From the sequence record NC_005066.1: DNA of 64,000 bases; one strand, given 5' to 3'. The notes beneath the pieces were generated by a model. That model worked only from the letters and a program-made list of their open reading frames with translations, was not told where the DNA came from and did no database searches. Positions 1,265 to 41,844 of the stretch are shown here, piece after piece. Numbering within the stretch: the first letter of the stretch is position 1; every line of letters starts with the position of its first letter. The translations under genes were made by a program, and so were the position numbers. This stretch comes from Escherichia phage RB49.

Positions 1265-1337
1265 ATTTGATTCTCCTGTAAAGTTGTATCTCGTCTTGAT
1301 GAATATAGTATAGGGGATCTCGCGATCCCCGTCAAGC
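1265..1337 (-). promoter_or_regulatory. early promoter cassette (sigma70-like -35 TTGACG / -10 TATACT, palindromic spacer, conserved leader + RBS)
   Basis: rc reads TTGACG-17-TATACT; palindrome GGGGATC..GATCCCC in spacer; GGAGAATCAAA before ATG. Confidence 0.5.
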
Positions 1338-1339
1338 AT

Positions 1340-1888
1340 TTATTTTAAATTTTTTCGAATGTATTCAGACCATTCCTTCCCTGTCAGTTCGGTCCCATTC
1401 TGGAAACTGAAATATTCATACGGCATCGAGTCAAGATAAAACAGGATCATACATCGCGCCATATAATACCAATCACGATTAAAGTAAACTACGTTATCGC
1501 CAGTACCATCAGCACCTTTATCATAACCATCGCGGGTACGGGCGACCCATTGAATGGTATCATTTTTCTCACGGATAGTAACAGGTTCCCAATATCCAGC
1601 ACATCCAGCATGACCACACGAACAAGTAAGGAAATATTGACCTTTTGCTTTGTTGTCATCCCATTCACGATGAATTGGTTTGATTTCGTGAAACAGTGCC
1701 AAACAATCATGATTATGCAACACTGGCTTACCATCAATCAATGCATGGAATGTATACAAACGACCCGTAGACAAATAGTTATCTTCTCGCTCTACAAGTT
1801 CAATAGCAATCTTTTTAGCTCGTTCTTTGTGTCGTTGTGCTTTACGCTTACGGTTTAATGATTTCATATTCACCTCACACATTATCAA
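1340..1888 (-). CDS. hypothetical protein, Cys/His-rich (182 aa)
   Basis: Track ORF; CxC...C..C..H cluster (TCSCGHAGCAGYW) suggests metal binding. Confidence 0.5.
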   Translation of the reverse strand: MIMCEVNMKSLNRKRKAQRHKERAKKIAIELVEREDNYLSTGRLYTFHALIDGKPVLHNHDCLALFHEIKPIHREWDDNKAKGQYFLTCSCGHAGCAGYWEPVTIREKNDTIQWVARTRDGYDKGADGTGDNVVYFNRDWYYMARCMILFYLDSMPYEYFSFQNGTELTGKEWSEYIRKNLK

Positions 1889-2424
1889 AGGTCGCGATAT
1901 AGTACATTATGAAAATGAGAACTTGCATTACCAATATTGTAGATAATAAATTCTTCATCCGGCGCTTGCGCTACAAATTGAGTATGAGCAACCGCCACAA
2001 CCTTAAAAATACGATCCGTGATCTTGTGTTTAATTTCTGCCCCTACTTCCATAGGAACATATTCATGTGTTTCTGTTTCAGTCGCAAAACAGCCATCTTC
2101 TTCATAAGCACGAACAAATCGATCGCAATCAGTACGCTTAACAAATTCAAGAGTATACAATTCTCGTGAATTGTCGGTATAAACCAACACAGAATTATTA
2201 TGATAGCGAATCACATACAGGTTATTATCATCGTCAATTACGCAAAAGCTACGGATTCCTTCGCCTTTACTCCAGCAGATATTAACCACCGTTCCTCTAA
2301 TAAAAAAACTTTCCTTTAAATTAAAACTAGTCAATGTGCTAGCGTGCATTTTAACAACAACACCATCGCCAATTTCCAGTTTACGAAGTTTAACTTCTTT
2401 GCTCAGTACACAAAACATCATCAT
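1885..2424 (-). CDS. hypothetical protein (179 aa)
   Basis: Track ORF; ATG rc at 2422-2424 preceded by GAGG RBS and promoter cassette. Confidence 0.55.
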   Translation of the reverse strand: MMMFCVLSKEVKLRKLEIGDGVVVKMHASTLTSFNLKESFFIRGTVVNICWSKGEGIRSFCVIDDDNNLYVIRYHNNSVLVYTDNSRELYTLEFVKRTDCDRFVRAYEEDGCFATETETHEYVPMEVGAEIKHKITDRIFKVVAVAHTQFVAQAPDEEFIIYNIGNASSHFHNVLYRDL

Positions 2425-2482
2425 GTTGTCCTCTCGTTGTTTTCGATGTGAGCATTATACATTAGCTAATCATGTTGTCAAC
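2425..2482 (-). promoter_or_regulatory. early promoter cassette (TTGACA-17-TATAAT)
   Basis: rc of 2454-2482 gives TTGACA, 17 nt spacer, TATAAT. Confidence 0.55.
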
Positions 2483-2485
2483 ACC

Positions 2486-2520
2486 CCAAAACGAAAAAGC
2501 CGACCCTTTCGGATCGGCTG
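2486..2520 (-). terminator. rho-independent terminator downstream of nrdD
   Basis: Hairpin agccgaccctttcggatcggct; on the minus strand it is followed by a T-run (plus-strand A-run 2486-2497). Confidence 0.55.
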
Positions 2521-2524
2521 AAAA

Positions 2525-4387: not shown

Positions 4388-4432
4388 TGTATCACCTATG
4401 AAAAAGCGGGATTTTCTCCCGCTCGTTGATAG

Positions 4433-4927
4433 TTATTTTACCAGTTCTGCTAATTCTTTTTCTTTAGCTTCTAGTTCAGCTTTAAGCTGTTTAATCTCTT
4501 GTCGCTTCTTATTAGCGGCTTCTTGCTTACTATTTCGGATAACCTGATCTAGATACAACTCCCAATCCTGAATATTTTTGATAATGTAACCGTCAACATT
4601 AATTGGTCGGAGATTCAGTACAGCTTCCAGTTTAGTTGCAAAAACTTTAATTGCTGGGGTGAAGTATTCATATTCGTTATCTTCAAACCAATAACCTAGA
4701 CTTGCATTATCAATACGAAGACGAAGTTCAAGATCAAGGTCTTTATCTTCGGTGTATAGGTCTTTTACACACCCCATAGAATTAACAACAACTTTAAAAC
4801 GAATTTTATCTACACCACCAAACACATCAGTAAGGATACCAGCAATTGAGCTATTAGCGCAAGATTGGTCGCTGAATGCGTCAAGGTTTTCTTTAGTTAC
4901 AGTATACCAAACATCTTGTACCCACAT
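4433..4927 (-). CDS. hypothetical protein with C-terminal coiled coil (164 aa)
   Basis: Track ORF; GAGGATTATATT-ATG start context; K/E-rich heptad-like C-terminus. Confidence 0.55.
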   Translation of the reverse strand: MWVQDVWYTVTKENLDAFSDQSCANSSIAGILTDVFGGVDKIRFKVVVNSMGCVKDLYTEDKDLDLELRLRIDNASLGYWFEDNEYEYFTPAIKVFATKLEAVLNLRPINVDGYIIKNIQDWELYLDQVIRNSKQEAANKKRQEIKQLKAELEAKEKELAELVK

Positions 4928-4985
4928 AATATAATCCTCTCGTTGTTAAGTGGGAGTATTATAGCATACTCCCTTTGCATGTCAA
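4928..4985 (-). promoter_or_regulatory. early promoter cassette with stem-loop over the -10
   Basis: rc: TTGACA-16-TATAAT; palindrome GGGAGTAT..ATACTCCC spans the -10. Confidence 0.55.
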
Positions 4986-6160
4986 GCACTAACTTTTTTC
5001 TTTACTGCTTTCACCTTCTGGCGAATTGCTCGAATCTCTTCGATCTCTTTTTCAGTCTCTTTAACAATTTCTTTGCGATTCTGAATATCTGTATCGAGAT
5101 TATCATCAAGTTTAGGCAGCATGTCAATCAAGAACTTTTTAAAGTCTTTCAGGTTTCGGATAACAGCACCTTCACCCATTACCGCCACACCAACACCATC
5201 CGGCAGATCACCAAACAGTTTAACCAGTTCAGACAGATGATCATGGTCTTCTAATGCTTCCTCCGGTTCAGATGGCAGTTCAACAAAGTTATAACGTTCA
5301 TCATTGCTGATCAAGTGATACCAGCAAAGCCCGAAAGATTTCGGTGTATATTCTACACCATCAATTTCAACCGCGTCAACACTTCCATAATCATCTACTT
5401 TAGTTACCTTAAATCCTTGTCCCAGCTTTTGAACAATTTCAACAACATGACTTGATACAGTTTCAGCGGTAAACCAATATGGCAAATTATGCTGATTTGG
5501 CTTGTAGCGTTCACCTACTTTAAATCTCTGACCATCCGCTTGCATAGCATGAAATTGTTGTTTCGTGATTTCCGCGAAGTATTCAAATTCGCCACCATCA
5601 AACACACAAGCCCATTGATCACAAAAACGATCTGCCTTAACAGTTTCACCTTTCGCGGTGATCATGGTAGCCGATCCGTGCAATTCTTCTTCAACCAAAA
5701 AGCCATATTCGACAAAATCAACAAGTTTCATGGCTTCTTTGTGCTCTGGGTCATGCTCTCCCCAGAATCGCTTAAATTCTTGCAAACCTTCTGGTGTAAA
5801 CGAATAACATTTACCTTTTTCAAAGTAAGTCGGCATTACATCCTCTTTCTTGTTCATCGCTTCGTATGCCTCTTTTGAGATGCGTTTAAAGTATTTACGC
5901 TCATCGTGCATAATCATAGTAGCCCAATAATAAACGATATCCTCAGCGGAATAAACTACATCTCCAGCTTCAATAGTAATAACATGACCGTGGTCATCTT
6001 TTTCTAATACTTTAAAGCCCTTTTCGACGATTTCAGCAACCCGAATATGACCACGGCGCGAAGCATCGGTCAGAATAATTGAATAGCGAGAAAAGTCTAG
6101 AAACTCATCTTTACCACCTTCACGGAATGCATAGTAATGACCTTCAAAGAATTTAGCCAT
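4982..6160 (-). CDS. hypothetical protein, two-module member of tandem paralog family A (392 aa)
   Basis: Contains GFKVL...ERKYFKRI motif twice; same motif in the next two ORFs. Confidence 0.6.
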   Translation of the reverse strand: MAKFFEGHYYAFREGGKDEFLDFSRYSIILTDASRRGHIRVAEIVEKGFKVLEKDDHGHVITIEAGDVVYSAEDIVYYWATMIMHDERKYFKRISKEAYEAMNKKEDVMPTYFEKGKCYSFTPEGLQEFKRFWGEHDPEHKEAMKLVDFVEYGFLVEEELHGSATMITAKGETVKADRFCDQWACVFDGGEFEYFAEITKQQFHAMQADGQRFKVGERYKPNQHNLPYWFTAETVSSHVVEIVQKLGQGFKVTKVDDYGSVDAVEIDGVEYTPKSFGLCWYHLISNDERYNFVELPSEPEEALEDHDHLSELVKLFGDLPDGVGVAVMGEGAVIRNLKDFKKFLIDMLPKLDDNLDTDIQNRKEIVKETEKEIEEIRAIRQKVKAVKKKVSA

Positions 6161-6220
6161 AATATAATCCTCTCGTTGTTTAAATGGGAGTATCTTACTA
6201 CTCCCGTTTCATCATGTCAA
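6161..6220 (-). promoter_or_regulatory. early promoter cassette with stem-loop
   Basis: rc: TTGACA-17-TAAGAT; palindrome GGGAGTA..TACTCCC. Confidence 0.5.
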
Positions 6221-6783
6221 GCGTTAAATGACTTTTGGATCTCTTTCAGTTCAGCTACTTTATCGGCGCTGAATTTAGCGTAGGTATCATGTCGAATAAT
6301 TTCACTTTCAAGAAAGGTTTCCAGCCGAGATCTATTTTCAATAAGGAACTCTTTCAGGTCTTCCGCGTTCTTGATAAAGATTTTATTGTCAGTAATGTCA
6401 TCTTCAATCGCAAAGGAGATAGAGCGAACTTTACCAAACAAGTTAATCAGATCTTCCAGAGATTCTTCTTTCTTAACTGGTTTCATTTCTTCAAACTGCT
6501 TTTTAGTGATGCGTTTAAAGTATTTGCGCTCGCTTACATCAATCATGATTGACGCACCCTCATAATCATGAGTTTCGACCAAATACACTTTACCCATAAC
6601 ATTAACAGTTAGAACTTTAAAGCCCTTGTGAAGCACACCATACAGGAACTTGTTATGTTGTGGATAGCGTTTAACAAATTCCTCTGCGGACTCAGCATTA
6701 CGGAAAGTGTAATAACGACCTCGTTCAAAAACAGCATCAGTTGAAGACTTAGCCGGATACAATTTATACGTTTTCTGTACCAT
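6217..6783 (-). CDS. hypothetical protein, paralog family A (about 188 aa)
   Basis: GFKVL...ERKYFKRITKKQFEEM motif; start moved to ATG at 6781-6783 with GAGGATTATATT RBS context. Confidence 0.55.
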   Translation of the reverse strand: MVQKTYKLYPAKSSTDAVFERGRYYTFRNAESAEEFVKRYPQHNKFLYGVLHKGFKVLTVNVMGKVYLVETHDYEGASIMIDVSERKYFKRITKKQFEEMKPVKKEESLEDLINLFGKVRSISFAIEDDITDNKIFIKNAEDLKEFLIENRSRLETFLESEIIRHDTYAKFSADKVAELKEIQKSFNA

Positions 6784-6797
6784 AATATAATCCTCTA

Positions 6798-7070: not shown

Positions 7071-7130
7071 TGTTGATTCTCCTTCTTGATTAGATGGGAG
7101 TATTTTACTACTCCCATTTCATGCTGTCAA
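7071..7130 (-). promoter_or_regulatory. early promoter cassette with stem-loop
   Basis: rc: TTGACA-17-TAAAAT; palindrome GGGAGTA..TACTCCC. Confidence 0.5.
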
Positions 7131-7133
7131 CTA

Positions 7134-7622
7134 CTATCTTAATCTTTGTATAAATTGTTTCTTATACTTCTTCGTGATCTCTTCTCTTGTATCCGCGTCA
7201 CAATAATCGAAACCTTCTGCGTCCATAATAGCAACCATCTCCGCGCGTGTCAAGCGTGAAAATCGTTTTACTTTATCAACAGCATATTGAGGATGTAAAT
7301 GATTGTTGGTGTAGTCTCCTTTGATGTAATTAACATAGTTTGTAGCCCAAACAACGAAATCAGCACCTAAAGCACCAACACCAAACCGTTTAAAGTCTCC
7401 GGTCAACGATCCTTCTAGGCGGTTGCAACACGAATGAAGCAATCCCCTTACACGGCCTTGCCCTTTCCCATCTAGATCGTGGTCGTGGTCAAGATGGTTT
7501 TTGCTCATATCCTCAAAAAGTGGCAATTGACAAAGGGGGCAAATGCCCCCCTGTTTTTCGAATAGTTCTTGTTTGTACTCTTTAGCACTCTTAGCAGTCA
7601 GTAACATAAATTCACCCTCCAA
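7134..7622 (-). CDS. 49: recombination endonuclease VII (Holliday junction resolvase)
   Basis: 162 aa; CPLCQ..HLDHDHDL..GRVRGLL..CN motif pattern of T4 gp49. Confidence 0.9.
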   Translation of the reverse strand: MEGEFMLLTAKSAKEYKQELFEKQGGICPLCQLPLFEDMSKNHLDHDHDLDGKGQGRVRGLLHSCCNRLEGSLTGDFKRFGVGALGADFVVWATNYVNYIKGDYTNNHLHPQYAVDKVKRFSRLTRAEMVAIMDAEGFDYCDADTREEITKKYKKQFIQRLR

Positions 7623-7631
7623 AGAAGGTAT

Positions 7632-7925
7632 TTAACCATTAATCTTGTTTTTGACTACAAAGGATCGGAACTCATCAAAACCACCGATATAATCACCATC
7701 ATAGAAAATCTGCGGCATGGTGGCAATAACTTCTACCCCTGCGCGATCCTGAATATCGGCAATGATAGAATCAATCTTTACCGGACGACCGTTTTCGTCC
7801 ACACCATCATTAACCGGAATGTAGATGTAAGGGATCTTACGCGCTTCACAAAGGCGCTTTGCATTCTGGCAATACTTACAGTTGTAACCTTCAAAACCAA
7901 AAATTTCTACCATGTTATACCTCAA
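7632..7925 (-). CDS. nrdC: glutaredoxin/thioredoxin (NrdC-like)
   Basis: 97 aa; CKYC redox motif; TMPQIFYDGDYIGGFDE glutaredoxin C-terminal signature. Confidence 0.85.
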   Translation of the reverse strand: MRYNMVEIFGFEGYNCKYCQNAKRLCEARKIPYIYIPVNDGVDENGRPVKIDSIIADIQDRAGVEVIATMPQIFYDGDYIGGFDEFRSFVVKNKING

Positions 7926-8734
7926 TCTACGTTAGTTACATAAACTTCTTGCGTATCAGAAGACTTACCACCTGAACGATCTAGGCAATAGGTCTTATTC
8001 AACAGGACGCAGTTTAAATCATTCCGCTTGATAAAGTCAAGAAGATGATCATTTACCTTTCCCTTATGATGCGTGACATTACTGATACCAAACTGAAAAC
8101 CACGCGCCATAATAGATTCTACCCACTGATAGAATTTAATCTCTTCCTCGTCACTCCAGAACTTATTATATTCCGCAGAAGTGACAAGGTACGGCGGGTC
8201 CAAATAAACGAAATCACCTGGCAAGATCTCGATCTCGTCATAACGACCAGACGTAAAACTGATTCGACCGTCTTTGTTTTCTTCCTTAAAATTCAGGACA
8301 CGCTCTACCGCGTTTTCGTTAAAAGTCCGGCGACCAAAATTAGCATTAAATTCGCCCTTCCTGTTATGGCGGTTAATGTTGCTAAAACTGTGCTGAATCA
8401 GAACAAACAGAGATAGCGGATCTGGATTCTCATTATACTTCTTACGGAATGCCATGTAAGCATCTTTATCATCACGAGACAAACCATTTTCGGTAATAAT
8501 ACGCTTGATCGTAGAAACCGGATCAGGACACTCGTCAATCGCTTTGTACGCGTCAATTAAGCGGTGATCATAGTCATTAGCCAGCACATCCCCTTCGACG
8601 TACAGAGACACGCTCAAGCCGCCACAGAAGGCATCAACAAAGCGGTTATAGTGCTTAGGGAAATACTTACTAACACCTGGCAATAACTTTTCCTTATTGC
8701 CAGTATAGGGAATTAAACCTAATGCTTTCTTCAT
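7922..8734 (-). CDS. dam: DNA adenine methyltransferase (Dam)
   Basis: 270 aa; motif I FCGGLSV and motif IV DPPY; recognisably similar to T4 Dam along its length. Confidence 0.9.
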   Translation of the reverse strand: MKKALGLIPYTGNKEKLLPGVSKYFPKHYNRFVDAFCGGLSVSLYVEGDVLANDYDHRLIDAYKAIDECPDPVSTIKRIITENGLSRDDKDAYMAFRKKYNENPDPLSLFVLIQHSFSNINRHNRKGEFNANFGRRTFNENAVERVLNFKEENKDGRISFTSGRYDEIEILPGDFVYLDPPYLVTSAEYNKFWSDEEEIKFYQWVESIMARGFQFGISNVTHHKGKVNDHLLDFIKRNDLNCVLLNKTYCLDRSGGKSSDTQEVYVTNVD

Positions 8735-9165: not shown

Positions 9166-9175
9166 TATATAATCC

Positions 9176-9969: not shown

Positions 9970-9983
9970 AAATTCACCTCACA

Positions 9984-10292
9984 TTATTTCACGTTAACGC
10001 CGTCATCAATCCAGCCGACGCTATTTGGTTTAACAGTTTTACCATAGGATGCATACTTAATCAAGCATGGTTTAACATCATTATCAAATCTTCCTAAACG
10101 TACTCCCAAATCAGGAATATCCATGTATGCGGCTTTATATCCCCATGTGCCATATTCAGAATCAATCTCAACCGGACGGCCTTTAAAAGCATACACTACA
10201 CCGTGACGGTCAATGATAACATAGCAATAACCAGCCGGAAGATACACAGTTTCGCCGTAAACTTTAACTGGAGTAGCCGAAGAGATAAACAT
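9984..10292 (-). CDS. hypothetical protein (about 102 aa)
   Basis: Track ORF 9984..10328 trimmed to the ATG at 10290-10292, because the upstream ATG lies inside the promoter -10; GAGGATTATATT RBS context. Confidence 0.45.
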   Translation of the reverse strand: MFISSATPVKVYGETVYLPAGYCYVIIDRHGVVYAFKGRPVEIDSEYGTWGYKAAYMDIPDLGVRLGRFDNDVKPCLIKYASYGKTVKPNSVGWIDDGVNVK

Positions 10293-10355
10293 AATATAAT
10301 CCTCACATCGTTCATTTGATGCGGTCATTATATGATAACCGCATTTTCATGTCAA
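10293..10355 (-). promoter_or_regulatory. early promoter cassette with stem-loop
   Basis: rc: TTGACA-17-TATAAT; palindrome ATGCGGT..ACCGCAT around the -10. Confidence 0.5.
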
Positions 10356-10362
10356 ACAGTTT

Positions 10363-10737
10363 TTAAAAATCTTCTTCCGGTTTATATCGTCCGTCATCAA
10401 CTGGTTTTGGGCTGAATCCGGTATGTTTGCGCGGCTTCGCTTCCGGTTTCCCCGCGATCGATAGTCCAAGCCATTTAAGAAGTTTGTATGAGTAAGCGAT
10501 GATCACAACTACCCACGTTAAAGGCCATACAATAGAACAAATGGCATATGCTCCGGTATCGACCTCTTTGGTGTCCTTATCGAATCTGGCATACAAGCAA
10601 ATTATAAGATAGGTGATCATTGCACCAGTAGGCCAAATATAAAGCACATTAACAATATCTTGTGTTGTCACGTTATCCTCCTTACATGTCTTGCAGTGCA
10701 TAAAAGCATTTTTCTTCGTAGTCATAGAAAATGTCAA
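10363..10737 (-). CDS. hypothetical membrane protein (124 aa)
   Basis: Track ORF; two hydrophobic segments. Confidence 0.45.
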   Translation of the reverse strand: MTFSMTTKKNAFMHCKTCKEDNVTTQDIVNVLYIWPTGAMITYLIICLYARFDKDTKEVDTGAYAICSIVWPLTWVVVIIAYSYKLLKWLGLSIAGKPEAKPRKHTGFSPKPVDDGRYKPEEDF

Positions 10738-10956
10738 AGTATGCTTTTTCTACATACTCGCCATTGATCCAAGCGGCAGTAACAATCAGAGTAGTCCAGT
10801 TAGACCCGCTCTCAACGGTAAAGGTTTTAATACCCAGCTTCGCTGCCAAGTCGAACGCAAACCGGACGCAACCACGGCAGGAAGTGATATTGGAAGTTTT
10901 GATTTTAAAGCCACCGCGAGTTTTAGAAATTTCTACTTTAGCGAAAGACAGGTTGC
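10682..10956 (-). CDS. hypothetical protein (about 91 aa)
   Basis: Start moved to ATG at 10954-10956 (MSNLSF...) preceded by GGAGAATCAAA and promoter cassette. Confidence 0.45.
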
Positions 10957-11031
10957 TCATTTTGATTCTCCTTAAGAAAGTGTGTTTCGTTTTGATGTGT
11001 GTAGTATAGGGGATCACCGATCCCCTGTCAA
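10957..11031 (-). promoter_or_regulatory. early promoter cassette (TTGACA-17-TATACT)
   Basis: Palindrome GGGGATCACCGATCCCC in spacer; conserved leader CATCAAAACGAAACAC. Confidence 0.55.
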
Positions 11032-11039
11032 CAACTTTT

Positions 11040-11303
11040 TTATGATTTTAGTGAATTAACCACTACATCAAAATGATGTACAGAGCACACCTTACGAAAC
11101 ACATATTCATCATGTTTCGGAATCGCCCCCAACCGCTTTATTTCGCTCGCTGACACGATAAACCGTTTATCCGGTGCATTTACCTTATATGCTTCAACAA
11201 CGCACGGAAAACGCGTTTTAGCGAGTTCGGGATAGTTTTCTGACTCCATCAGGACAATGAATACACTATTACATTGATTGTAGAATCCTGTTTTTGATTT
11301 CAT
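11040..11303 (-). CDS. hypothetical protein (start uncertain)
   Basis: Track ORF 11040..11369 begins at a non-ATG codon and overlaps the upstream ORF; internal ATG at 11301-11303 used. Confidence 0.35.
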   Translation of the reverse strand: MKSKTGFYNQCNSVFIVLMESENYPELAKTRFPCVVEAYKVNAPDKRFIVSASEIKRLGAIPKHDEYVFRKVCSVHHFDVVVNSLKS

Positions 11304-11610
11304 CAAGTTTTCTTCTATGTTCAAGTCGTGCAATCTTCCTTTCATGATTTCGTTGGTTCTTGTCTTCACAGTTTACCCACTCAACAAGATCTTTACCCAA
11401 CTCGAAAGCCCATTCTCGGTCTTGCTTTACGTTTTGTAGGTATGGACTTTCCGACACTCTACGAAGTGATGTTGTCGTAACAAGAATGATCCCATGAATG
11501 GTCGGATGTTCCTTTCCATATACAATAGGACGCGAGTCACTATCAATACCTTGTAAGAAGGTGTATCCTGAATCACTTAGAATCATATACTTTTTCATTT
11601 CACACATCAC
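11269..11610 (-). CDS. hypothetical protein (113 aa)
   Basis: Track ORF. Confidence 0.45.
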   Translation of the reverse strand: MMCEMKKYMILSDSGYTFLQGIDSDSRPIVYGKEHPTIHGIILVTTTSLRRVSESPYLQNVKQDREWAFELGKDLVEWVNCEDKNQRNHERKIARLEHRRKLDEIKNRILQSM

Positions 11611-11864
11611 AGTTTCCTCAACCAGTTATTAAAGCTAGCAAACCATGATGCTTTTCGTGCTTCTTTTACTTTATGTGCACGAAAACCACTGAAACACCAT
11701 TCATAATCATCACTGAAACATGATTCAACAGGAACACCCGCATTTCGTAGTTCTCTGGTCTTTATCATGAATCCTTGACATAAGGGGCGACCTTCAACAA
11801 TGATAGGAAGTTTAACTTTTTCCATGAAAGTATACCCAGCACGGTCAATAATTTCAATCTTCAT
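11607..11864 (-). CDS. hypothetical protein, paralog family B (85 aa)
   Basis: MKIEIIDRAGYTFMEKVKLPIIVEGR... near-duplicate of the 11883..12080 product. Confidence 0.55.
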   Translation of the reverse strand: MKIEIIDRAGYTFMEKVKLPIIVEGRPLCQGFMIKTRELRNAGVPVESCFSDDYEWCFSGFRAHKVKEARKASWFASFNNWLRKL

Positions 11865-11882
11865 AATATAATCCTCAATTAG

Positions 11883-12080
11883 TTATACCGCCCAGGCTTC
11901 ATTTGCACGAAAACACCATTCATACTCAGGAAAATAACCTTTAATTGGTACGCCAGCTTTTTGTAGTTCCTGTGTTTCTACAAGATAATCAAGCCCATAA
12001 CGACGACCTTCCACGATGATAGGAAGTTTAACGCCATTCATGAAAGAAAATCCACCGTCATCAATAATTTCAATTTTCAT
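11883..12080 (-). CDS. hypothetical protein, paralog family B (65 aa)
   Basis: MKIEIIDDGGFSFMNGVKLPIIVEGR...; tandem duplicate. Confidence 0.55.
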   Translation of the reverse strand: MKIEIIDDGGFSFMNGVKLPIIVEGRRYGLDYLVETQELQKAGVPIKGYFPEYEWCFRANEAWAV

Positions 12081-12325: not shown

Positions 12326-12783
12326 TTTGTGATCTCCTTATACTCAACACACCATAAGCGGGTAGCCCATGATAAACGCTCATAACGCTGGCAGAAATCG
12401 GACCATAGATATTGTGCACCGTTCGGCATAGTTGAAATATGCGTTTTCTCTCCAACTTTCACGAAAGAAGTATTCGATTTTGTGATCTCGACCGGAGTAT
12501 ATCCGAAAGCGGGTTCCAAGCCAACATCTGAACTAAATGCCAATTTAACAGAATTTGTTTTTCTGACCGCTGTCCGGTTTCCTTCTGGGTATAGCACAGC
12601 AGGTTTAGCGCCTAAGCGGATAAACTCAGTATTTTTAATAAACAGAATATCATGATAACCGTCGTATTCCGACACTTCCATAGTAACAGGAAAATCGATA
12701 TGTGCTAAACCTGGTAGATCTCGCATATCATGAAATGTAGCCATCAACTTTTTCATCTTGTATGCCTCACTCTTCTGTTTCAT
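12322..12783 (-). CDS. hypothetical protein (153 aa)
   Basis: Track ORF. Confidence 0.5.
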   Translation of the reverse strand: MKQKSEAYKMKKLMATFHDMRDLPGLAHIDFPVTMEVSEYDGYHDILFIKNTEFIRLGAKPAVLYPEGNRTAVRKTNSVKLAFSSDVGLEPAFGYTPVEITKSNTSFVKVGEKTHISTMPNGAQYLWSDFCQRYERLSWATRLWCVEYKEITK

Positions 12784-13003: not shown

Positions 13004-13265
13004 TACATGCTTTTAATGCATCGGTCGCGGTGTCATAGCGAGTATTATCATAGCACCAATAACCATCTGTCAACTGATAAATTAATCCATCCTTTTTAGC
13101 TTCGATGAAAGACAATTCTTTGAAAGTTTCTACTTTCTTTGCTGATACTCCACGGTCACGGCGCTTATAGAGTTTAGCTAAAATGCGTTCAGCTTGTTCC
13201 TCTTTATCACCAGACAGATCCCAGATGATGTTTCGGATATGTTTGATTAATTGTTCAGTGGTCAT
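12975..13265 (-). CDS. hypothetical protein (96 aa)
   Basis: ATG rc at 13263-13265 preceded by GGAGAATCAAAG and promoter cassette. Confidence 0.5.
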   Translation of the reverse strand: MTTEQLIKHIRNIIWDLSGDKEEQAERILAKLYKRRDRGVSAKKVETFKELSFIEAKKDGLIYQLTDGYWCYDNTRYDTATDALKACNDHLRKTTI

Positions 13266-13322
13266 CTTTGATTCTCCTTAGTTGGTATGTGTGCATTATA
13301 GCACTATGATTTTCATTGTCAA
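13266..13322 (-). promoter_or_regulatory. early promoter cassette (TTGACA-16-TATAAT)
   Basis: rc of 13295-13322. Confidence 0.55.
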
Positions 13323-13330
13323 CAACTAAA

Positions 13331-13360
13331 AACAAAAAGGGCTATCCCGAAGGATAGCCC
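13331..13360 (-). terminator. rho-independent terminator downstream of the glycine-rich gene
   Basis: Perfect hairpin gggctatcc-cgaa-ggatagccc; T-run follows on the minus strand. Confidence 0.7.
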
Positions 13361-13366
13361 ATAAAA

Positions 13367-14143
13367 TTACACGCGAGCACCGTAGATCGTGCCTACTTTA
13401 TCCCAGCGTGGAGCATTACCAGTAACGGCTTTACCAGCAGCACCACCGTTATATTCTGTACCGTTCCCCTGAGTATTACATCTTCCTCCAGCAGCACCAA
13501 CGTTACCGCCCGCACCGCCTGTATATGCACTAAGAGACCCCTCACCAACAGATCCTTTACCCGGAGCGGAAATGGAGCCAGCGGTTGCACCAGAACCCAT
13601 ATTAGAGGAAGACCCACCAGCACCGAATGGGCGACCACCACCGCCACCAAATACTAGTCGACCCCTGTTACCGCCACCACCACCGCCACCACCGCCAGCG
13701 ATAGCACCGTTATTTGTAATTCGTAGACGTGTACCGATAGCGTTATTGATTGCGTTTCCACCAGCAGCGCCAGCCGCGTTACTACCACCGTTACCCCCAC
13801 GTCCGTAGACAGTCACACCGGAGTTAATGATCAATGTTACATATTCGTTTGTTAACGAGCTAGGGAAGTCAAGACAAGGAACGCCAGTAGATTGGGAAAC
13901 AATATTACCCGTGATAGTAATTACTACCGGAGTAGATCCTTGTGCTTTCATCCAGTTAATAAGAGTGTCTTTATTGTAAGAGTTACTAGCACCAATGCTA
14001 TAATGAATCTCTTTAGAGCGTCCGACCATTGCCGACATATACGCCGGACGACCTAAGCGAACAGCTTGCATTGCGGCGCTCATCCACCGTTGACCAGTCT
14101 CGGACACAGCCGATGATCCGACCCAACCTGCTTTAATTGCCAT
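13367..14143 (-). CDS. glycine-rich low-complexity protein (258 aa)
   Basis: About 100 aa non-repetitive N-terminus, then long Gly/Ala/Asn-rich region with a G9 run; strong RBS GAGGAAAC; flanked by terminators. Confidence 0.6.
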   Translation of the reverse strand: MAIKAGWVGSSAVSETGQRWMSAAMQAVRLGRPAYMSAMVGRSKEIHYSIGASNSYNKDTLINWMKAQGSTPVVITITGNIVSQSTGVPCLDFPSSLTNEYVTLIINSGVTVYGRGGNGGSNAAGAAGGNAINNAIGTRLRITNNGAIAGGGGGGGGGNRGRLVFGGGGGRPFGAGGSSSNMGSGATAGSISAPGKGSVGEGSLSAYTGGAGGNVGAAGGRCNTQGNGTEYNGGAAGKAVTGNAPRWDKVGTIYGARV

Positions 14144-14156
14144 AAAGTTTCCTCAC

Positions 14157-14179
14157 AAGAAAAGCCCCAATTAAGGGGC
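14157..14179 (-). terminator. terminator-like hairpin immediately upstream of the glycine-rich gene
   Basis: gcccc-ttaatt-ggggc followed by TTTTCTT on the minus strand, then the RBS. Confidence 0.5.
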
Positions 14180-14197
14180 ATTGATTGATAATATTAC

Positions 14198-14419
14198 TTA
14201 GATGATCTCTGCTTCACCATTCAGGAAGAAAGACCATGTTTTGTTAGGATAGCGAAGCGCCCATGATTCGGCAGTTTTAACACCAGCTTCGAACAATTGA
14301 CGGCTGGTCACTTTAGCCATACCATCTTCGATGGCAACGTTTTCAATAATCATCGGGTACTTAGCGCCACGCATGAAACCGAAGCCAGCGGAAGACTTGA
14401 TAATTTTAACAGTTGCCAT
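14198..14419 (-). CDS. hypothetical protein, paralog family B (about 74 aa)
   Basis: MATVKIIKSSAGFGFMRGAKYPMIIENV... resembles MKIEIID..GYTFM..VKLPIIVEG; start at 14417-14419 with cassette upstream. Confidence 0.5.
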   Translation of the reverse strand: MATVKIIKSSAGFGFMRGAKYPMIIENVAIEDGMAKVTSRQLFEAGVKTAESWALRYPNKTWSFFLNGEAEII

Positions 14420-14488
14420 TTTGATTCTCCTAGAAAGTGTATCTCGTTTCGATGGGTGTATTATGCAATAACACCGGATCGCTGTCAA
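14420..14488 (-). promoter_or_regulatory. early promoter cassette (TTGACA-17-CATAAT)
   Basis: Conserved leader CATCGAAACGAGATAC and GGAGAATCAAA RBS. Confidence 0.5.
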
Positions 14489-14507
14489 CACTTTCTAAGA
14501 AAAATTT

Positions 14508-15474: not shown

Positions 15475-15509
15475 TCTTCACGGTCTCCATAATTGTTTTG
15501 TAAGCCAGT

Positions 15510-15674
15510 TTAAGATGATTCACCGAAAAACTTTGCGGTGTTACCCTTCGGATCGCGGAGCATGGTTTCTACGATCTCATCGGCAGTAACAATTTCTCCT
15601 TTCTTTGCTGCATGTTCTACCATATACTTCAAAGTTTCTTCGGAAGCAAGTGCTGCGGCTACTGGATTAATCAT
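15510..15674 (-). CDS. small hypothetical protein (54 aa), below track size cutoff
   Basis: Hand-translated MINPVAAALASEETLKYMVEHAAKKGEIVTADEIVETMLRDPKGNTAKFFGESS; promoter cassette and GGAGAATCAAA RBS directly upstream. Confidence 0.4.
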   Translation of the reverse strand: MINPVAAALASEETLKYMVEHAAKKGEIVTADEIVETMLRDPKGNTAKFFGESS

Positions 15675-15732
15675 TTTGATTCTCCTTTGTTGTCGATGTG
15701 TGCATTATGCTATACTCTATTCCGGTTGTCAA
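15675..15732 (-). promoter_or_regulatory. early promoter cassette (TTGACA-17-CATAAT)
   Basis: rc of 15704-15732. Confidence 0.5.
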
Positions 15733-15739
15733 CACCTAA

Positions 15740-15772
15740 AAACGAAAAAGCCACCCTTTCGGATGGCTTTTT
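15740..15772. terminator. hairpin terminator with A-run upstream and T-run downstream (potentially bidirectional)
   Basis: aaaaacgaaaaa-gccaccctttcggatggc-tttttg. Confidence 0.55.
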
Positions 15773-16002
15773 GATTATATTTTATTCACGTCCATTTGTA
15801 TAGTAGTGTTTGAATCGACCTTTGCTAAACTAGTTAAACATAGTAACCAATTCACCATCCCTTTCCAATGATAAACCTTCCTCGTCTTAGACGGGTCTTC
15901 CGATTCGGCAGGAATTGAACACGCGAAAGTATGAGGAAGCCAAATAGTTGTGTTAATGCTAGTATTCTTTTACTTCTGGTATGCATCCCACAGTGACTAA
16001 CA

Positions 16003-16690: not shown

Positions 16691-16723
16691 AAGTCATTCC
16701 CCCAGATTTAAAATATTCAGTTA

Positions 16724-16731
16724 TATTTATA
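16724..16731 (-). promoter_or_regulatory. T4-type late promoter core TATAAATA (minus strand)
   Basis: Plus tatttata = rc TATAAATA, about 34 nt upstream of the ATG at 16690; sits in the loop of palindrome ccccagatt..aatctgggg. Confidence 0.4.
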
Positions 16732-16758
16732 ATCTGGGGCTTTATTTATGATTAACTC

Positions 16759-25938: not shown

Positions 25939-26127
25939 TCAACACTTAACGCTATTCAAACGATTTTGAAAGTACATATAGCAAGCATAATTTTGCTTTG
26001 GCTGTACCGTATCAGATAGACACGCTTTTACAGCCTCGCGGTCCGATGGATCTACACCCTCAGCTTTAAGTAATGCTAAAATCTGGTTATAGCGTACTCT
26101 TAGTTGTACTAATGGTTTATCCCCCAT
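25939..26127 (-). CDS. small hypothetical protein (62 aa)
   Basis: Track ORF. Confidence 0.4.
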   Translation of the reverse strand: MGDKPLVQLRVRYNQILALLKAEGVDPSDREAVKACLSDTVQPKQNYACYMYFQNRLNSVKC

Positions 26128-26136
26128 ATTACCCCC

Positions 26137-26358
26137 TTATAGTTGATCAGCGATGTAAGCGTGACAAGCGCGGAGTTTCATTAATGCACTACCTTTCACT
26201 TCGCCGACGATGTTCATAACTTCTAAGCGGTCGGATGGATTCATCTTAGAGCACCAGATCTGGTTAGCCAATTCCAGTTTACTCATATTTGGTTCCATCT
26301 CAAACAGTTCACGCTCAAAGTCGATAATTTCTTTTGCTGCGTCTTTAAAGTTAATCAT
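26137..26358 (-). CDS. small hypothetical protein (73 aa)
   Basis: Promoter cassette upstream. Confidence 0.45.
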   Translation of the reverse strand: MINFKDAAKEIIDFERELFEMEPNMSKLELANQIWCSKMNPSDRLEVMNIVGEVKGSALMKLRACHAYIADQL

Positions 26359-26416
26359 TTTGGTCCTCCCGTTTCGTTGATGGTTGTATTGTAGGGGAGT
26401 TATCCTCCCCTGTCAA
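26359..26416 (-). promoter_or_regulatory. early promoter cassette with stem-loop (TTGACA-17-TACAAT)
   Basis: Palindrome AGGGGAG..CTCCCCT. Confidence 0.5.
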
Positions 26417-26424
26417 CACTTTTA

Positions 26425-26610
26425 TCAGAAATATGCAATATAGTTTGCCAGTCCTACAGAGTCATCATTCGGCATTGCTTTTACTGCCAGTTCAAACCCT
26501 GCTTCAACTTTCTGTTTAGCGGATTCTTCGTTATAACCCCAGATTACCAGAATAGCTACTACGTTTTCTTTGCTTACTGCTTTCAGTGCTTTAGTGATGC
26601 GACGTGCCAT
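26425..26610 (-). CDS. small hypothetical protein (61 aa)
   Basis: Promoter cassette upstream. Confidence 0.45.
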   Translation of the reverse strand: MARRITKALKAVSKENVVAILVIWGYNEESAKQKVEAGFELAVKAMPNDDSVGLANYIAYF

Positions 26611-26685
26611 AATTTGATTCTCCGTTTAAGAAAGTGTGTTTCGTTTCGATGGGTGTATTATGCTATAGGCAGGATCTGGTGTCAA
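26611..26685 (-). promoter_or_regulatory. early promoter cassette (TTGACA-17-CATAAT)
   Basis: Conserved leader CATCGAAACGAAACAC; GGAGAATCAAA RBS. Confidence 0.55.
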
Positions 26686-26711
26686 CAACTTTTTTAAAAA
26701 AATTTTAGGCA

Positions 26712-26739
26712 ATAAAAAAGCCACTCCGAAGAGTGGCTT
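26712..26739 (-). terminator. rho-independent terminator
   Basis: Hairpin gccactc-cgaa-gagtggc with T-run on the minus strand. Confidence 0.6.
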
Positions 26740-26888
26740 ATAGGGAAGGTAGCGAATCTTCCTTGTCTCCAACCTGCTAGCGGCCTAGCAAGTGAATGCT
26801 TTAGCGTACCGGATCGCCCACATACGCTGTAATAAATGCGGCTAGGTGACGTCCAAATCATTCTAACCGCGCTGTCTTTAGTTCACTA

Positions 26889-27107
26889 TTATTTATATCG
26901 CTTTCTCTCGCGACGTTTTTGGTCTTCTTCCTTGATAGAGTTAAATGCATCAAAAAGACACATGGCACTAATAATAAACATAACCGTATTTTCTACGATA
27001 TCCCACGGCTTCGCATCAGTACAGATCCCCCAAACGGTAAGAAATGCAAATAAGGCAGAAGAGATCACAAGCATGATACTTGCTAAGATATAAAAAGTCA
27101 TTTTCAT
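26889..27107 (-). CDS. small hydrophobic membrane protein (72 aa)
   Basis: TM helices; basic C-terminus. Confidence 0.4.
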   Translation of the reverse strand: MKMTFYILASIMLVISSALFAFLTVWGICTDAKPWDIVENTVMFIISAMCLFDAFNSIKEEDQKRRERKRYK

Positions 27108-27298
27108 GGTTTTACCTCAATTCTTCGATATTCATCACACATCCACACAGTAAGCAAGAATCCCAGCACATAAGCAACAAAATACGTTAATGCTTCTTCT
27201 GGTTCGGTGCTATGCGCCATCATCAGACCAGCGAGAAAGGTCTTAACAATTACATTTAAAATAATTAGCCACGCAAATAATTTCATAGTTTGCCCCAT
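27104..27298 (-). CDS. small hydrophobic membrane protein (64 aa)
   Basis: TM helices. Confidence 0.4.
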   Translation of the reverse strand: MGQTMKLFAWLIILNVIVKTFLAGLMMAHSTEPEEALTYFVAYVLGFLLTVWMCDEYRRIEVKP

Positions 27299-27522
27299 TT
27301 CGGACGAGTATTTTCAAACTTATACATTACGTAACAATCTCGAATCATCCACGTAACAAGAGCACCAGTCAACACAGACAATACGCAGAAGAAGTAAAAC
27401 GGTCCGGTTGCATTATCAACATGAGCAAGCCAGGTAAAGAAAACACATGCTAAGAATGTAAAGAACATCATAAAGCACAAGAAAGCGAAATATTTTATAC
27501 TACTCATAGCGCCACCATACAA
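27283..27522 (-). CDS. small hydrophobic membrane protein (79 aa)
   Basis: TM helices. Confidence 0.4.
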   Translation of the reverse strand: MYGGAMSSIKYFAFLCFMMFFTFLACVFFTWLAHVDNATGPFYFFCVLSVLTGALVTWMIRDCYVMYKFENTRPKWGKL

Positions 27523-27610
27523 CAGATCATAAGAAACCCCAACGCAATAAGAATTGCGTCAAATTTAGTGAACTCCGGTCCACCTATCAACATCATTCGT
27601 TCTATTTCGT

Positions 27611-27853
27611 TCATAGCGTACAAAGCCATTTAAAAGCACCACATAAAGCGAGCAGAATACTAGGTATAAACGAGACCAAAACAAGTTTGCAAAAATCATC
27701 TAAGGTAACACCGGAATAGCTACCTACTGTAACAACACCGATCATCAGACACAGAAAGAAAACAAATGCAATCATAAACAAAGTATTGCTAAACAGTTTA
27801 GTGATCATTAGACACCCCACGACGATCAATTTCAAAAACTTTTTTATCATCAA
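27611..27853 (-). CDS. small hydrophobic membrane protein (80 aa)
   Basis: TM helices. Confidence 0.4.
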   Translation of the reverse strand: MMIKKFLKLIVVGCLMITKLFSNTLFMIAFVFFLCLMIGVVTVGSYSGVTLDDFCKLVLVSFIPSILLALCGAFKWLCTL

Positions 27854-28001
27854 CGAAGCATGTCACAACTGCCTCGTTGACTTCCGCAAATTGTTGTGTC
27901 ACCCACTTAAGGTCAGAGCGAAACAATGTTCTATTAATAACAAATGTTTTACCGCTCTTATCCTTACCCATAAATTTTGCTTTACCCATATCCAATTCCA
28001 T
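27798..28001 (-). CDS. small hypothetical protein (67 aa)
   Basis: Track ORF. Confidence 0.35.
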   Translation of the reverse strand: MELDMGKAKFMGKDKSGKTFVINRTLFRSDLKWVTQQFAEVNEAVVTCFVDDKKVFEIDRRGVSNDH

Positions 28002-28011
28002 ATTATCACCT

Positions 28012-28170
28012 TATTTGCTAATCGCTAAACCCAATCCGAAGAGAGCACCCGATGCTACAGTATACCCGAAAGTTTCAAAGGCAGTAAAGATATCTAAGCC
28101 ACCAGCTAACAGAGTTGCAGTAAACAGAGTACCAGCTACGAACATAAAAGTTTTACCGATGAATTTCATT
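28012..28170 (-). CDS. small Gly-rich hydrophobic peptide (52 aa), below track cutoff
   Basis: Hand-translated MKFIGKTFMFVAGTLFTATLLAGGLDIFTAFETFGYTVASGALFGLGLAISK; promoter cassette and GGAGAATCAAA RBS upstream. Confidence 0.4.
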
Positions 28171-28231
28171 TTGATTCTCCTTTCGTTTGTTTGTGGGGGT
28201 ATCTTACTACCCCCCGTTTCATGTTGTCAAC
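28171..28231 (-). promoter_or_regulatory. early promoter cassette with stem-loop (TTGACA-18-TAAGAT)
   Basis: Palindrome GGGGGGTAGTAAGATACCCCC (rc). Confidence 0.5.
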
Positions 28232-28236
28232 TATTT

Positions 28237-28620
28237 TTAAGAATATTTTACTTCGTCTACAATGTCTTTCATGACATTGATTTCCATTCCGGTCAGAACA
28301 CGTTGGAACATGTGCTGCACATACGCTTTCAGGTATTCATTTGATGGCTTGCTATCGAAAGTCTTTTTAGTGTAGTAGTCATCACCGAAAGCTACTGTAA
28401 TTATATTTTCGTCGTCGTTCCAAGCGATATAAGCAAATTTGCCGTTATCCCAGAAGCGAGCACTAATTGCTACTTTTGTTGAATCGAATCCTACTTCGCT
28501 GTGAGATTCAAGAACTACTTGCGTGCCAGTTTCTTTATGAATGTAGTAGCGGGATACTAAGTCAAAGTTACGGGTGTAGTGACATTCGAATTTATCTTTA
28601 AACATCATCATCATTTTGAT
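28237..28620 (-). CDS. hypothetical protein (start uncertain)
   Basis: Track ORF 28237..28683 trimmed to the Met cluster downstream of the cassette at 28621-28680. Confidence 0.45.
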   Translation of the reverse strand: MKMMMMFKDKFECHYTRNFDLVSRYYIHKETGTQVVLESHSEVGFDSTKVAISARFWDNGKFAYIAWNDDENIITVAFGDDYYTKKTFDSKPSNEYLKAYVQHMFQRVLTGMEINVMKDIVDEVKYS

Positions 28621-28680
28621 TCTCCTAAGTGTGTTTCGTTTCGATATGTGCATTATGCTATAGTCGTTTATGGTTGTCAA
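28621..28680 (-). promoter_or_regulatory. early promoter cassette (TTGACA-17-CATAAT)
   Basis: rc of 28652-28680. Confidence 0.5.
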
Positions 28681-28686
28681 CAACTA

Positions 28687-41792: not shown

Positions 41793-41804
41793 GTGTATGA
41801 TTTA

Positions 41805-41840: not shown

Positions 41841-41844
41841 GGTG

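Follow-up and report, generated by a model that had tools for sequence, protein, structure and literature searches.

The closest described counterparts of the elements analyzed here are the promoter-early stem-loop (PeSL) cassettes, which were defined in the phages RB49 and phi1 by Arbiol et al. (2010, PMC2839356), with 51-52 copies per genome and five positions of the stem-loop. In vivo promoter and terminator activity was published there for PeSL193/192, PeSL206/205 (about 13,000 Miller units) and PeSL211/210, all located outside the window, namely the whole 64,000-nt stretch of DNA analyzed in this work. In that study, the reduction of lacZ expression by one PeSL stem-loop was similar to that by the rrnB T1 terminator; the only stem-loop tested experimentally was that of PeSL211/210. 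The same article placed 10 of 14 indels between phi1 and RB49 genome-wide at PeSLs, speculated on a GGGG...CCCC-binding recombination protein and reported mini-circles. The early promoter consensus of RB49, with a preference for G at -33 and with C noted at -3 to -1, agrees with 5'-end mapping (Nolan 2006). A search of the literature on Krischvirus transcriptomics returned nothing relevant.

PeSL-like elements were also described in T4/PST and KVP40/nt-1 (Comeau et al. 2014, PMC4122927), and related elements are located in the IP locus of T-even phages. Like the cassettes of the window, these are promoter-terminator composites of hyperplastic regions that were proposed to be exchange points, but they contain the T4-type -35 element GTTTAC and weaker AT-rich stems, whereas the window cassettes contain TTGACA and G/C-rich stems. 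Six window cassettes consist of a plain intrinsic terminator and then a promoter, as in bacterial terminator-promoter punctuation, and the embedded hairpins of ten others directly follow a stop codon, as do REP-type intercistronic hairpins. Unlike ordinary punctuation or REP elements, the hairpin in these ten cassettes is nested in the promoter core and has no U-tract. Integron gene cassettes and phage morons, with which PeSLs were compared by Arbiol et al., likewise carry small accessory ORFs with their own expression signals; unlike integron cassettes, the window cassettes have no integrase or attC-type site and are positionally fixed across relatives.

The window was 96-97.6% identical at the nucleotide level to RB49 and phi1 over 20-24 kb and belongs to Krischvirus. 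In the GenBank record of GEC-3S, 15 of the 16 sites orthologous to the minus-strand copies carry an annotated promoter, -35 and -10, as does the plus-strand copy. The first-pass annotation of the window had likened its cassettes to PeSLs, and this was confirmed by the RB49/phi1 lineage and by the published anatomy (AT-rich tract, sigma70 promoter, G/C stem-loop, Shine-Dalgarno (SD) sequence and start codon). The lineage, composite anatomy and stem-loop positions (over -10, between -35 and -10, or farther upstream in the AT-rich tract) are the same as in the PeSLs of RB49/phi1, and nothing essential differs; both sets occupy hyperplastic early regions, where they precede ORFans and flank nrdD, and the genes downstream of the window cassettes are mostly hypothetical ORFs. 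It is highly probable that the cassettes are PeSL cassettes of an RB49/phi1-type Krischvirus that insulate successive early units. They belong to an already published kind of element, correctly rediscovered, and PeSLs in one more RB49-type genome do not constitute a new kind. Published PeSLs illustrate how numerous small early transcription units are punctuated and insulated in large lytic phages, and possibly how accessory genes are exchanged. The new details obtained here, namely a hairpin-or-terminator rule and a pattern of stem selection, are modestly useful.

A strict regular expression (TTGAC[AG]-N15-19-TA.[AC][AC]T) missed half of the cassettes, since CATAAT, TAAGAT and TAATAT are among the variants of the -10 element. 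An nhmmer profile built from the 16 listed copies was used instead. Run against the window, it returned exactly these 16 minus-strand copies (E 2.7e-10 to 7e-17) and a 17th copy on the plus strand (41829-41899, E 6e-9); the next best match in the window had E 0.6. These E-values and the gap after them indicate that the similarity reaches well past the sigma70 hexamers. Inspection of the coordinates showed that each of the 16 listed positions is the base immediately 5' of a minus-strand ATG, preceded by GTTGACA, a spacer of 16-18 nt, a TATAAT-like hexamer, an A/C-rich leader and an SD, in that order. All 16 copies reported in the first-pass annotation therefore exist. Genome-wide, the profile matched 42 sites in RB49 and 40 in LF73P4. 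Paralogous cassettes are mosaics of common blocks, with a longest exact match of 32 nt and a median of 10 nt in the window.

A sigma70-consensus early promoter (TTGACA, 16-18 nt spacer, TATAAT-like -10) was found in all 17 copies, with TTGAC[A/G] as the -35 element in 17/17 and with 10-12 of 12 hexamer positions matching the consensus. The A+T content of the 20 nt located 5' of -35 was 77%, compared with 59% for the whole window. No T4-type early promoter (-35 GTTTAC in a T4 UP-element context) was found among the copies, the -35 being of the TTGACA type, its third base G throughout. The leader is conserved in a shorter form than first described: the full 16-nt CATCGAAACGAAACAC with at most 3 mismatches occurred in only 5 copies (chance expectation 0.98), and only CATC(G/A)A is general. 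An SD of the GGAG or GAGG type, 5-9 nt 5' of the ATG, closes 17/17 copies. With regard to the two RBS-start contexts initially considered conserved in the cassettes, GGAGAATCAAA (at most 1 mismatch) is indeed cassette-specific, with 10 of 11 minus-strand matches within cassettes, but only 3 of 7 exact matches of GAGGATTATATT-ATG lie within them, and the remaining ones are internal gene starts at 6795, 11876, 12976 and 24738. GAGGATTATATT is a generic repeated RBS that is used also by promoter-less internal genes, and since GAGGATTATATT-ATG occurs at these genes, the two RBS subtypes were ruled out as marks of two cassette lineages.

A strong promoter-internal hairpin (dG -12 to -14 kcal/mol, z < -3.5) was found in 10 of the 17 copies. 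In seven of them, the hairpin lies over the -10 element (here and below, a cassette is named after the gene that it precedes): the ORF057 cassette at 4928 (4925..4994; hairpin 4973-4952, dG -13.3, z -4.5), the frd.2 cassette at 6161 (6158..6231; 6205-6186), the ORF060 cassette at 7071 (7071..7145; 7117-7094), the ORF068 cassette at 10293 (10290..10372; 10344-10319, with one G.U pair), the ORF095/regB cassette at 20320 (20312..20392; 20360-20341), the ORF113 cassette at 25662 (25658..25744; 25719-25698) and the ORF124 cassette at 28171 (28166..28247; 28214-28195). In three, all likewise on the minus strand, it is located in the spacer between -35 and -10: the ORF053 cassette at 1265 (1262..1353; hairpin 1330-1313, GGGGATC/GATCCCC, dG -13.9, z -3.5, profile E 2.7e-10), the ORF070 cassette at 10957 (10956..11047; 11026-11008) and the ORF116 cassette at 26359 (26353..26434; 26411-26393). 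The ORF080 cassette at 14420 (14416..14506, minus strand) contains a weak 5-bp hairpin and has a 19-nt gap to the upstream stop without a terminator. The frequent palindromic spacers enclosing the -10, as first described, are thus found in part: the hairpin covers the -10 in seven copies, lies in the spacer in three, is weak in one and is absent from six.

In the six copies without an embedded hairpin, a hairpin plus T-run is located upstream of -35. These are the cassette downstream of nrdD at 2425 (2421..2499; terminator 2498-2519, stop-to-(-35) gap 43 nt), the ORF078 cassette at 13266 (13265..13340; 13339-13360), the ORF084 cassette at 15675 (15670..15751; 15745-15772), the ORF117 cassette at 26611 (26607..26703; 26718-26739) and the ORF125 cassette at 28621 (28611..28696; 28698-28718), all on the minus strand, and the 17th copy (41804..41899, plus strand). 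The latter, absent from the original list, is located within the structural region and comprises a terminator (41804-31), TTGACA-16-TATAAT, a leader and an SD; a promoter plus terminator is annotated there in GEC-3S.

In the ten cassettes with an embedded hairpin, the preceding ORF stops at -4 to +8 nt relative to -35 and there is no terminator; for instance, the stop is 4 nt from -35 in the ORF053 cassette, and the TGA stops of frd.2 and ORF059 lie within TTGACA of the ORF057 and frd.2 cassettes, respectively. In the six cassettes without one, the gap to the stop is at least 43 nt and contains a canonical terminator. This either/or distribution was significant in the window (Fisher p=6e-4) and in the RB49 genome (2/27 vs 10/15, p=1e-4), including RB49 cassettes outside the window (1/16 vs 4/9, p=0.04); in RB49, both the hairpin and the terminator are lacking from five cassettes. 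Note that ARNOLD labelled several embedded hairpins as terminators in G2248 and G2494, including the orthologs of the ORF060 cassette.

A single MAFFT alignment of the hairpins over -10 could not be given one structure line, because the register relative to -10 is shifted by 1 nt between two sub-geometries. Stem pairs were therefore counted on loop-centred sequences (Python) and are thus fitted to the structure. Among 21 distinct hairpins, stem pairs 2-8 were Watson-Crick or G.U in 146 of 147 cells, at least two pair types were found at 5 of 7 stem positions, and the sense orientation contained five G.U cells and no A.C cells. Pairing was observed in 93% of cells, compared with 63% after shuffling of the 3' arms among sequences. 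In eight orthologous genomes, mismatch cells amounted to 1.8% in stems, 1.5% in -35 and 14.7% in the unpaired 5' spacer. The stems vary by compensatory changes, such as the G.U to A-U changes in orthologs of the ORF068 cassette, and are conserved like -35, whereas variability of the unpaired spacer is about 8-fold higher. A broken stem occurs naturally in the cassette at 46047 of RB49 and in the ECD7 counterpart of cassette 6161.

These features fit the published terminator/insulator role. Each cassette would represent a strong early promoter for host sigma70, with an AT-rich UP-like tract, AGTTG-TTGACA, a TATAAT-like -10 and C-rich -3..-1. Downstream of it, a short leader, A/C-rich and presumably free of structure, leads to a strong SD, and the whole would start an early transcription unit. 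The embedded stem-loop is predicted to end just 5' of +1, so it would be absent from the cassette's own transcript and could act only on RNA (or DNA) coming from upstream, probably as a terminator, an attenuator or a 3'-end structure of the preceding unit. Where there is no room because the preceding ORF extends to -35, the hairpin would lie in the spacer/discriminator, the only free part of the promoter; where room is available, an ordinary hairpin-plus-T-run terminator would serve instead. The cassettes would therefore insulate successive early units. As a secondary effect, their patchy common sequence may occasionally be used as a recombination junction. Downstream of the embedded hairpins, the sequence is of the AUCGAAAC or UAUACU type and not a U-tract. 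Canonical intrinsic termination is therefore not expected of these hairpins, and we infer rather than observe that they terminate transcription in the window.

The lack of a U-tract after these (class A/B) hairpins is also an argument for regarding them as RNA 3'-end protectors or processing signals of the REP type, which would stabilise the upstream message after read-through and cleavage instead of terminating it. Their location directly after the upstream stop codon, the restriction of G.U pairs to the sense orientation, the promoter-less G/C hairpins without T-runs between genes (22670-22710 and 23920-23945) and the GGAG SD sites of the cassettes, a known type of target for RegB, which is encoded in the window, are consistent with this explanation. 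However, embedded hairpins and canonical terminators are distributed in a complementary manner, which suggests that their functions are equivalent, and the published lacZ assay gave a terminator-like result (PMC2839356), although termination and processing are inseparable in that assay as described. We consider such a protective role possible but unlikely; the hairpin-or-terminator rule and the stem selection pattern, a modestly useful result, support the insulator/terminator reading.

To evaluate the contribution of the cassettes to gene shuffling, 11 relatives taken from GenBank records were compared; scans of IMG/VR with Dam and NrdC.11 gave only two Krischvirus contigs. All 16 sites were conserved in position in every relative covering them. 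A boundary within 20 bp of a cassette was found for only 5 of the 24 distinct events (indels or replacements), and 6 of 47 boundaries fell within this distance compared with 3.0 expected, i.e., an approximately 2-fold enrichment (P=0.07-0.14). This association is weaker than the 10/14 described by Arbiol et al. for phi1 vs RB49 genome-wide. Boundaries inside cassettes were found for the JSE module 1346-2436 (both ends), the gp38 presence/absence module (left end, at the ORF078 cassette) and the LF73P4 junction (ORF070 cassette). The other 19 events were located elsewhere and included homing-endonuclease genes (3517, 7927, 21545-21572 and 22734), a collapse of the tandem paralogs ORF073/074, small-ORF swaps bounded by RBS (12752-12778 and 24742-25139) and within-gene divergence. 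Thus, the proposal that accessory genes were acquired or rearranged by recombination between cassettes is partly, and weakly, borne out by these comparisons, considering the fixed position of 16/16 sites, the P of about 0.07 and the generic nature of GAGGATTATATT. The five events near cassettes and the mosaic structure of paralogous cassettes are in line with inter-cassette recombination, but given the 19 events elsewhere and the identical number and positions of cassettes in relatives covering the region, it is doubtful that genes are gained and lost here mainly by this route. Among the 11 relatives, most gene-content differences in the early region are not at PeSLs, a modestly useful result that tempers the shuffling model. 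A modestly useful result is that a conserved ribosome-binding module, and not the promoter alone, recurs at gene-swap junctions.

The gene order of LF73P4 relative to RB49 (S1 S4 S2' S3' S5), with four junctions at RB49 coordinates 38.05 kb, 63.3 kb, 120.2 kb and 140.4 kb, corresponds exactly to an alternative path through the same repeat graph and may therefore be an assembly artefact; it was discounted as firm proof of PeSL recombination.

It is very improbable that the stem-loops act at the DNA level, as cruciforms or protein sites that target recombination or switch the promoter off, within an active integron-like shuffling system. The speculation and the mini-circles of Arbiol et al. (PMC2839356) and the three sets of boundaries inside cassettes speak for it, but they are opposed by the positional conservation of 16/16 sites in relatives covering them, the boundary enrichment of only about 2-fold, the tolerance of G.U on the sense strand only, the six cassettes without an embedded hairpin and the short exact matches between paralogs; stems of 7-10 bp would also be short for cruciform extrusion. 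Endonuclease VII, encoded at 7134-7622, is the example of a recombination agent named in this context. If the recombination-site reading were true, PeSLs would be a dedicated integron-like cassette exchange in a lytic phage, and the three sets of boundaries named above would be its footprints. That the embedded GGGG...CCCC stem-loops are not only RNA terminators but are also recognised by a recombination activity specific for structure or sequence appears very improbable. The probability that the similarity is a chance recurrence of generic sigma70 hexamers is negligible: generic promoter-like matches numbered 78 vs 57 +/- 8 in shuffles, but the profile E-values stand far from E 0.6, sequence 5' of -35, in the leader and in the RBS is common, and 16/16 copies are in coding orientation, immediately 5' of an ATG.

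Some further elements were found in the window. No tRNAs were detected in it, and no Rfam family reached the gathering score over its whole length, with only sub-threshold, terminator-driven matches in two long non-coding gaps. A promoter scan revealed a candidate 18th, divergent PeSL-like element upstream of vs.1 (19467..19533, minus strand) with TTGACT-17-TATTAT, to which the cassette profile gave no match. Folding showed that a 13-bp inverted repeat (19533-19485) encloses its promoter, the 5' arm covering -35, and the site is annotated as a promoter in GEC-3S.

The reverse complements of the 16 minus-strand sites at which the first-pass annotation had placed an early promoter-leader-RBS cassette, likened there to promoter-early stem-loop (PeSL) cassettes, were compared, and a common module was found. 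It consists of an A/T-rich tract, (A)GTTG-TTGACA, a 16–18 nt spacer, a TATAAT-like hexamer, a C-rich triplet, an A/C-rich leader beginning with CAT, a Shine-Dalgarno (SD) sequence of the GGAG or GAGG type and ATG. An nhmmer profile trained on these copies and run over the 64-kb window recovered precisely the 16 claimed ones (E 2.7e-10 to 7e-17), as well as a 17th copy on the plus strand (41829–41899, E 6e-9), and the best match after these had an E value of 0.6. This gap, together with the shared module, shows that the repetition is real and far above chance; similarity in both the alignment and the profile reaches past the two generic hexamers.

Other details of the module held in part. The proposed 16-nt leader CATCGAAACGAAACAC was found with at most 3 mismatches in 5 copies only, the CAT start being general. 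Of the two suggested RBS-start contexts, GGAGAATCAAA was cassette-specific (10 of 11 minus-strand matches), but GAGGATTATATT-ATG was not, as it is also present at four internal gene starts without a promoter. At least seven genes share the 15-mer GAGGATTATATTATG as their translation start region (sites 6795, 11876, 12976 and 24738, and also 4939, 6172 and 10304). A strong promoter-internal hairpin (dG -12 to -14 kcal/mol, z below -3.5) was predicted in 10 of the 17 copies; in 7 it lies over the -10 box, as had been noted, but in 3 it is placed in the spacer beside the -35 box.

A megablast search of phage records revealed 96–97.6% identity over 20–24 kb between the window and RB49, phi1, GEC-3S, JSE and about 50 other Krischvirus genomes. 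The region from 1 to ~31 kb is a minus-strand early block containing, in phi1 nomenclature, nrdG, nrdD, frd.2, 49, nrdC, dam, ..., 38, rI, tk, vs, regB, ..., dmd, 57B, 57A, 1 and 3. PeSLs were originally defined in RB49 and phi1 (Arbiol et al. 2010, PMC2839356). The published elements have promoters identical to the sigma70 consensus, a stable, frequently polyG...polyC stem-loop in one of five possible positions, most commonly between the two boxes or across the -10, and an SD sequence with a start codon at the 3' end (PMC2839356). phi1 has 52 of them and RB49 has 51; most precede ORFans in hyperplastic regions, and nrdD is named among the associated genes (PMC2839356). The resemblance proposed earlier was confirmed, every sequence-level defining feature being present. 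In addition, 15 of the 16 orthologous sites, as well as the plus-strand copy, carry an annotated promoter, -35 and -10 in the GenBank record of GEC-3S, which also marks terminators beside the copies without a promoter-embedded hairpin. According to Nolan et al. 2006, 5'-end mapping bears out the early-promoter consensus of RB49, and C is preferred at -3 to -1. The profile matched 42 sites in a complete RB49 genome and 40 in LF73P4, which is of the same order as the published count, where more divergent members such as the PeSL-like element at 19467–19533 are included. Thus, the cassettes are a rediscovery of an already known, partly experimentally characterised element in the lineage where it was first described; the incremental additions are an either/or rule for hairpins and terminators, the selection pattern on the stems and a modest breakpoint enrichment. 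Note that T4-type early promoters have GTTTAC as the -35, whereas the window cassettes have TTGACA, and that the PeSL-like elements of T-even phages are weaker.

The complementary distribution of embedded hairpins and upstream terminators is the most informative result. Wherever a strong hairpin is embedded (10 cassettes), the upstream ORF has its stop codon -4 to +8 nt from the -35, and none of these cassettes (0/10) has an upstream terminator. The TGA codons of frd.2 (4982–4984) and ORF059 (6217–6219) even lie inside the TTGACA of the next cassettes (4928 and 6161, respectively), which is an extreme overlap of coding and regulatory sequence. In all six cassettes without an embedded hairpin (2425, 13266, 15675, 26611, 28621 and the plus-strand 41829), the stop-to-promoter gap is at least 43 nt and contains a canonical hairpin-plus-T-run terminator, which ends 13–35 nt ahead of the -35. 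Cassette 14420 falls between the two groups. The distribution was significant in the window (Fisher p=6e-4), across the RB49 genome as a whole (2/27 vs 10/15, p=1e-4) and among RB49 cassettes outside the window (1/16 vs 4/9, p=0.04). It favours the published role of the stem-loop as a terminator or attenuator for the preceding unit, and suggests genome compaction as the reason for the odd position of the hairpin.

If +1 is set 7 nt past the -10, on the A that follows CCC, the last 3'-arm base of a hairpin over the -10 is -1, so the stem-loop is missing from the cassette's own transcript. It can act only on transcripts or DNA arriving from upstream. The embedded hairpins, which have no U-tract, would presumably release RNA polymerase; alternatively, they could merely stabilise or process the upstream RNA. 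A single stem-loop elsewhere in the genome was assayed by Arbiol et al. (PMC2839356). Two of the -10 hairpins (25698–25719 and 28195–28214) are followed by a T-rich sequence on the plus (antisense) strand and were flagged as terminator-like by the scan; they might also stop antisense transcription.

Sequence comparison indicates that the stems are under selection. For stem pairs 2–8 of 21 distinct hairpins with a 6-nt loop, taken from the window and from related genomes, 146 of 147 cells were Watson-Crick or G.U, and at least two pair types were found at 5 of 7 positions (for example, GGGAGTA/TACTCCC, GGGGGTA/TACCCCC and GGGTGTAT/ATACACCC). All five wobble cells were G.U on the sense strand, with no A.C. 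Pairing was 93%, compared with 63% when 3' arms were shuffled among sequences; the pairing percentage is biased towards structure because the sequences were centred on the predicted loop, a bias that does not affect the variety of pair types. Across eight orthologous genomes, the mismatch rate was 1.8% in the stems and 1.5% in the -35 hexamer, against 14.7% in the 5' portion of these spacers, which is unpaired. Natural variants with a broken stem occur.

Two long, highly structured non-coding gaps, 15752–16002 and 26704–26888, precede cassettes 15675 and 26611 and have intrinsic terminators at their ends. The 192-nt segment 26704–26895, spanning the second gap, was predicted to fold at -61.7 kcal/mol (z -3.0). 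Both gaps may encode small RNAs; an Rfam scan of them gave sub-threshold matches only. The first gap doubles as a hotspot for insertions, with ORF084.1 in phi1 and a 2.1-kb gene in G2248. G/C-rich intergenic hairpins without a promoter were found at 16710–16755, 22670–22710 and 23920–23945, and the loop of the rI-tk intergenic hairpin (CCCCAGATT...AATCTGGGG) holds TATAAATA, the T4 late-promoter consensus.

The first-pass annotation had suggested that the accessory genes were acquired or rearranged by recombination between cassettes. Comparison with 11 relatives (phi1, RB49, ECD7, GEC-3S, JSE, G2248, G2494, Whisky, MIZ5, LF73P4 and an IMG/VR contig) showed all 16 cassettes at orthologous positions in every covering genome, their overall conservation being equal to that of the mostly coding remainder (96.8% vs 96.7%). 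Indels or diverged blocks of ~80 bp or more were catalogued as 24 distinct events, five of which are cassette-associated: the JSE replacement of ORF054-055, with both ends inside cassettes 1265 and 2425; the Whisky ORF057 allele, whose end is 13 bp away from cassette 4928; the gp38 module (about 13290–14219), whose left junction separates the leader of cassette 13266 from its -10; divergence at the 3' end of ORF069, which begins 18 bp away from cassette 10293; and an LF73P4 junction at cassette 10957 (10956–11047). The other 19 events comprise insertions of homing-endonuclease genes (3517, 7927, 21545–21572 and 22734–22758); small-ORF insertions or swaps bounded by RBS/start sequences (12752–12778, where a 26-nt direct repeat flanks an extra ORF of G2494, and both ends of 24742–25139); a collapse of the tandem paralogs ORF073 and ORF074 (11607–12080); and within-gene divergence. 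The paralogs share the N-terminus MKIEIID, and their single fused copy in RB49, JSE, ECD7 and LF73P4 is consistent with unequal crossing-over. At the four homing-endonuclease sites and at 35511–35534, homing-endonuclease/HNH ORFs absent from the window are present variously in JSE, GEC-3S, Whisky, LF73P4, MIZ5, RB49 and G2248. A diverged co-conversion-like tract (7925–8205) adjoins the GEC-3S insertion.

Event boundaries coincided with cassettes to a limited extent: 6 of 47 were located within 20 bp (3.0 expected, P=0.07) and 10 of 47 within 90 bp (6.3 expected, P=0.09). Paralogous cassettes in the window share exact matches of at most 32 nt (median 10). These counts and short matches suggest that cassette-mediated exchange probably occurs, but that among the 11 relatives most of the variation in gene content here arises in other ways.

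The gp38 adhesin gene (13367–14143) behaves as a presence/absence module within the early region. It is preceded by a terminator, without a promoter, and its nucleotide identity to gp38 of Tequatrovirus/Mosigvirus-type phages is 75–90%. The module is absent in LF73P4, G2248, G2494, MIZ5 and the IMG/VR contig, where a different promoter with a spacer hairpin is fused to the same leader as in cassette 13266.

The segment order of the LF73P4 assembly (OZ035795) relative to RB49 is S1 S4 S2' S3' S5, and its junctions fall at a near-identical PeSL pair (RB49 38046 and 120267) and a ~100-bp inverted-repeat pair. This order was not counted as firm evidence of PeSL recombination, because it can be explained by two inversions but also by a different route through one and the same assembly graph. 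One member of the inverted-repeat pair is an intergenic element upstream of gene 3 (30775–30882) with three small hairpins, and its 95%-identical inverted copy is located ~77 kb away in RB49 (OZ035808 63270–63378).
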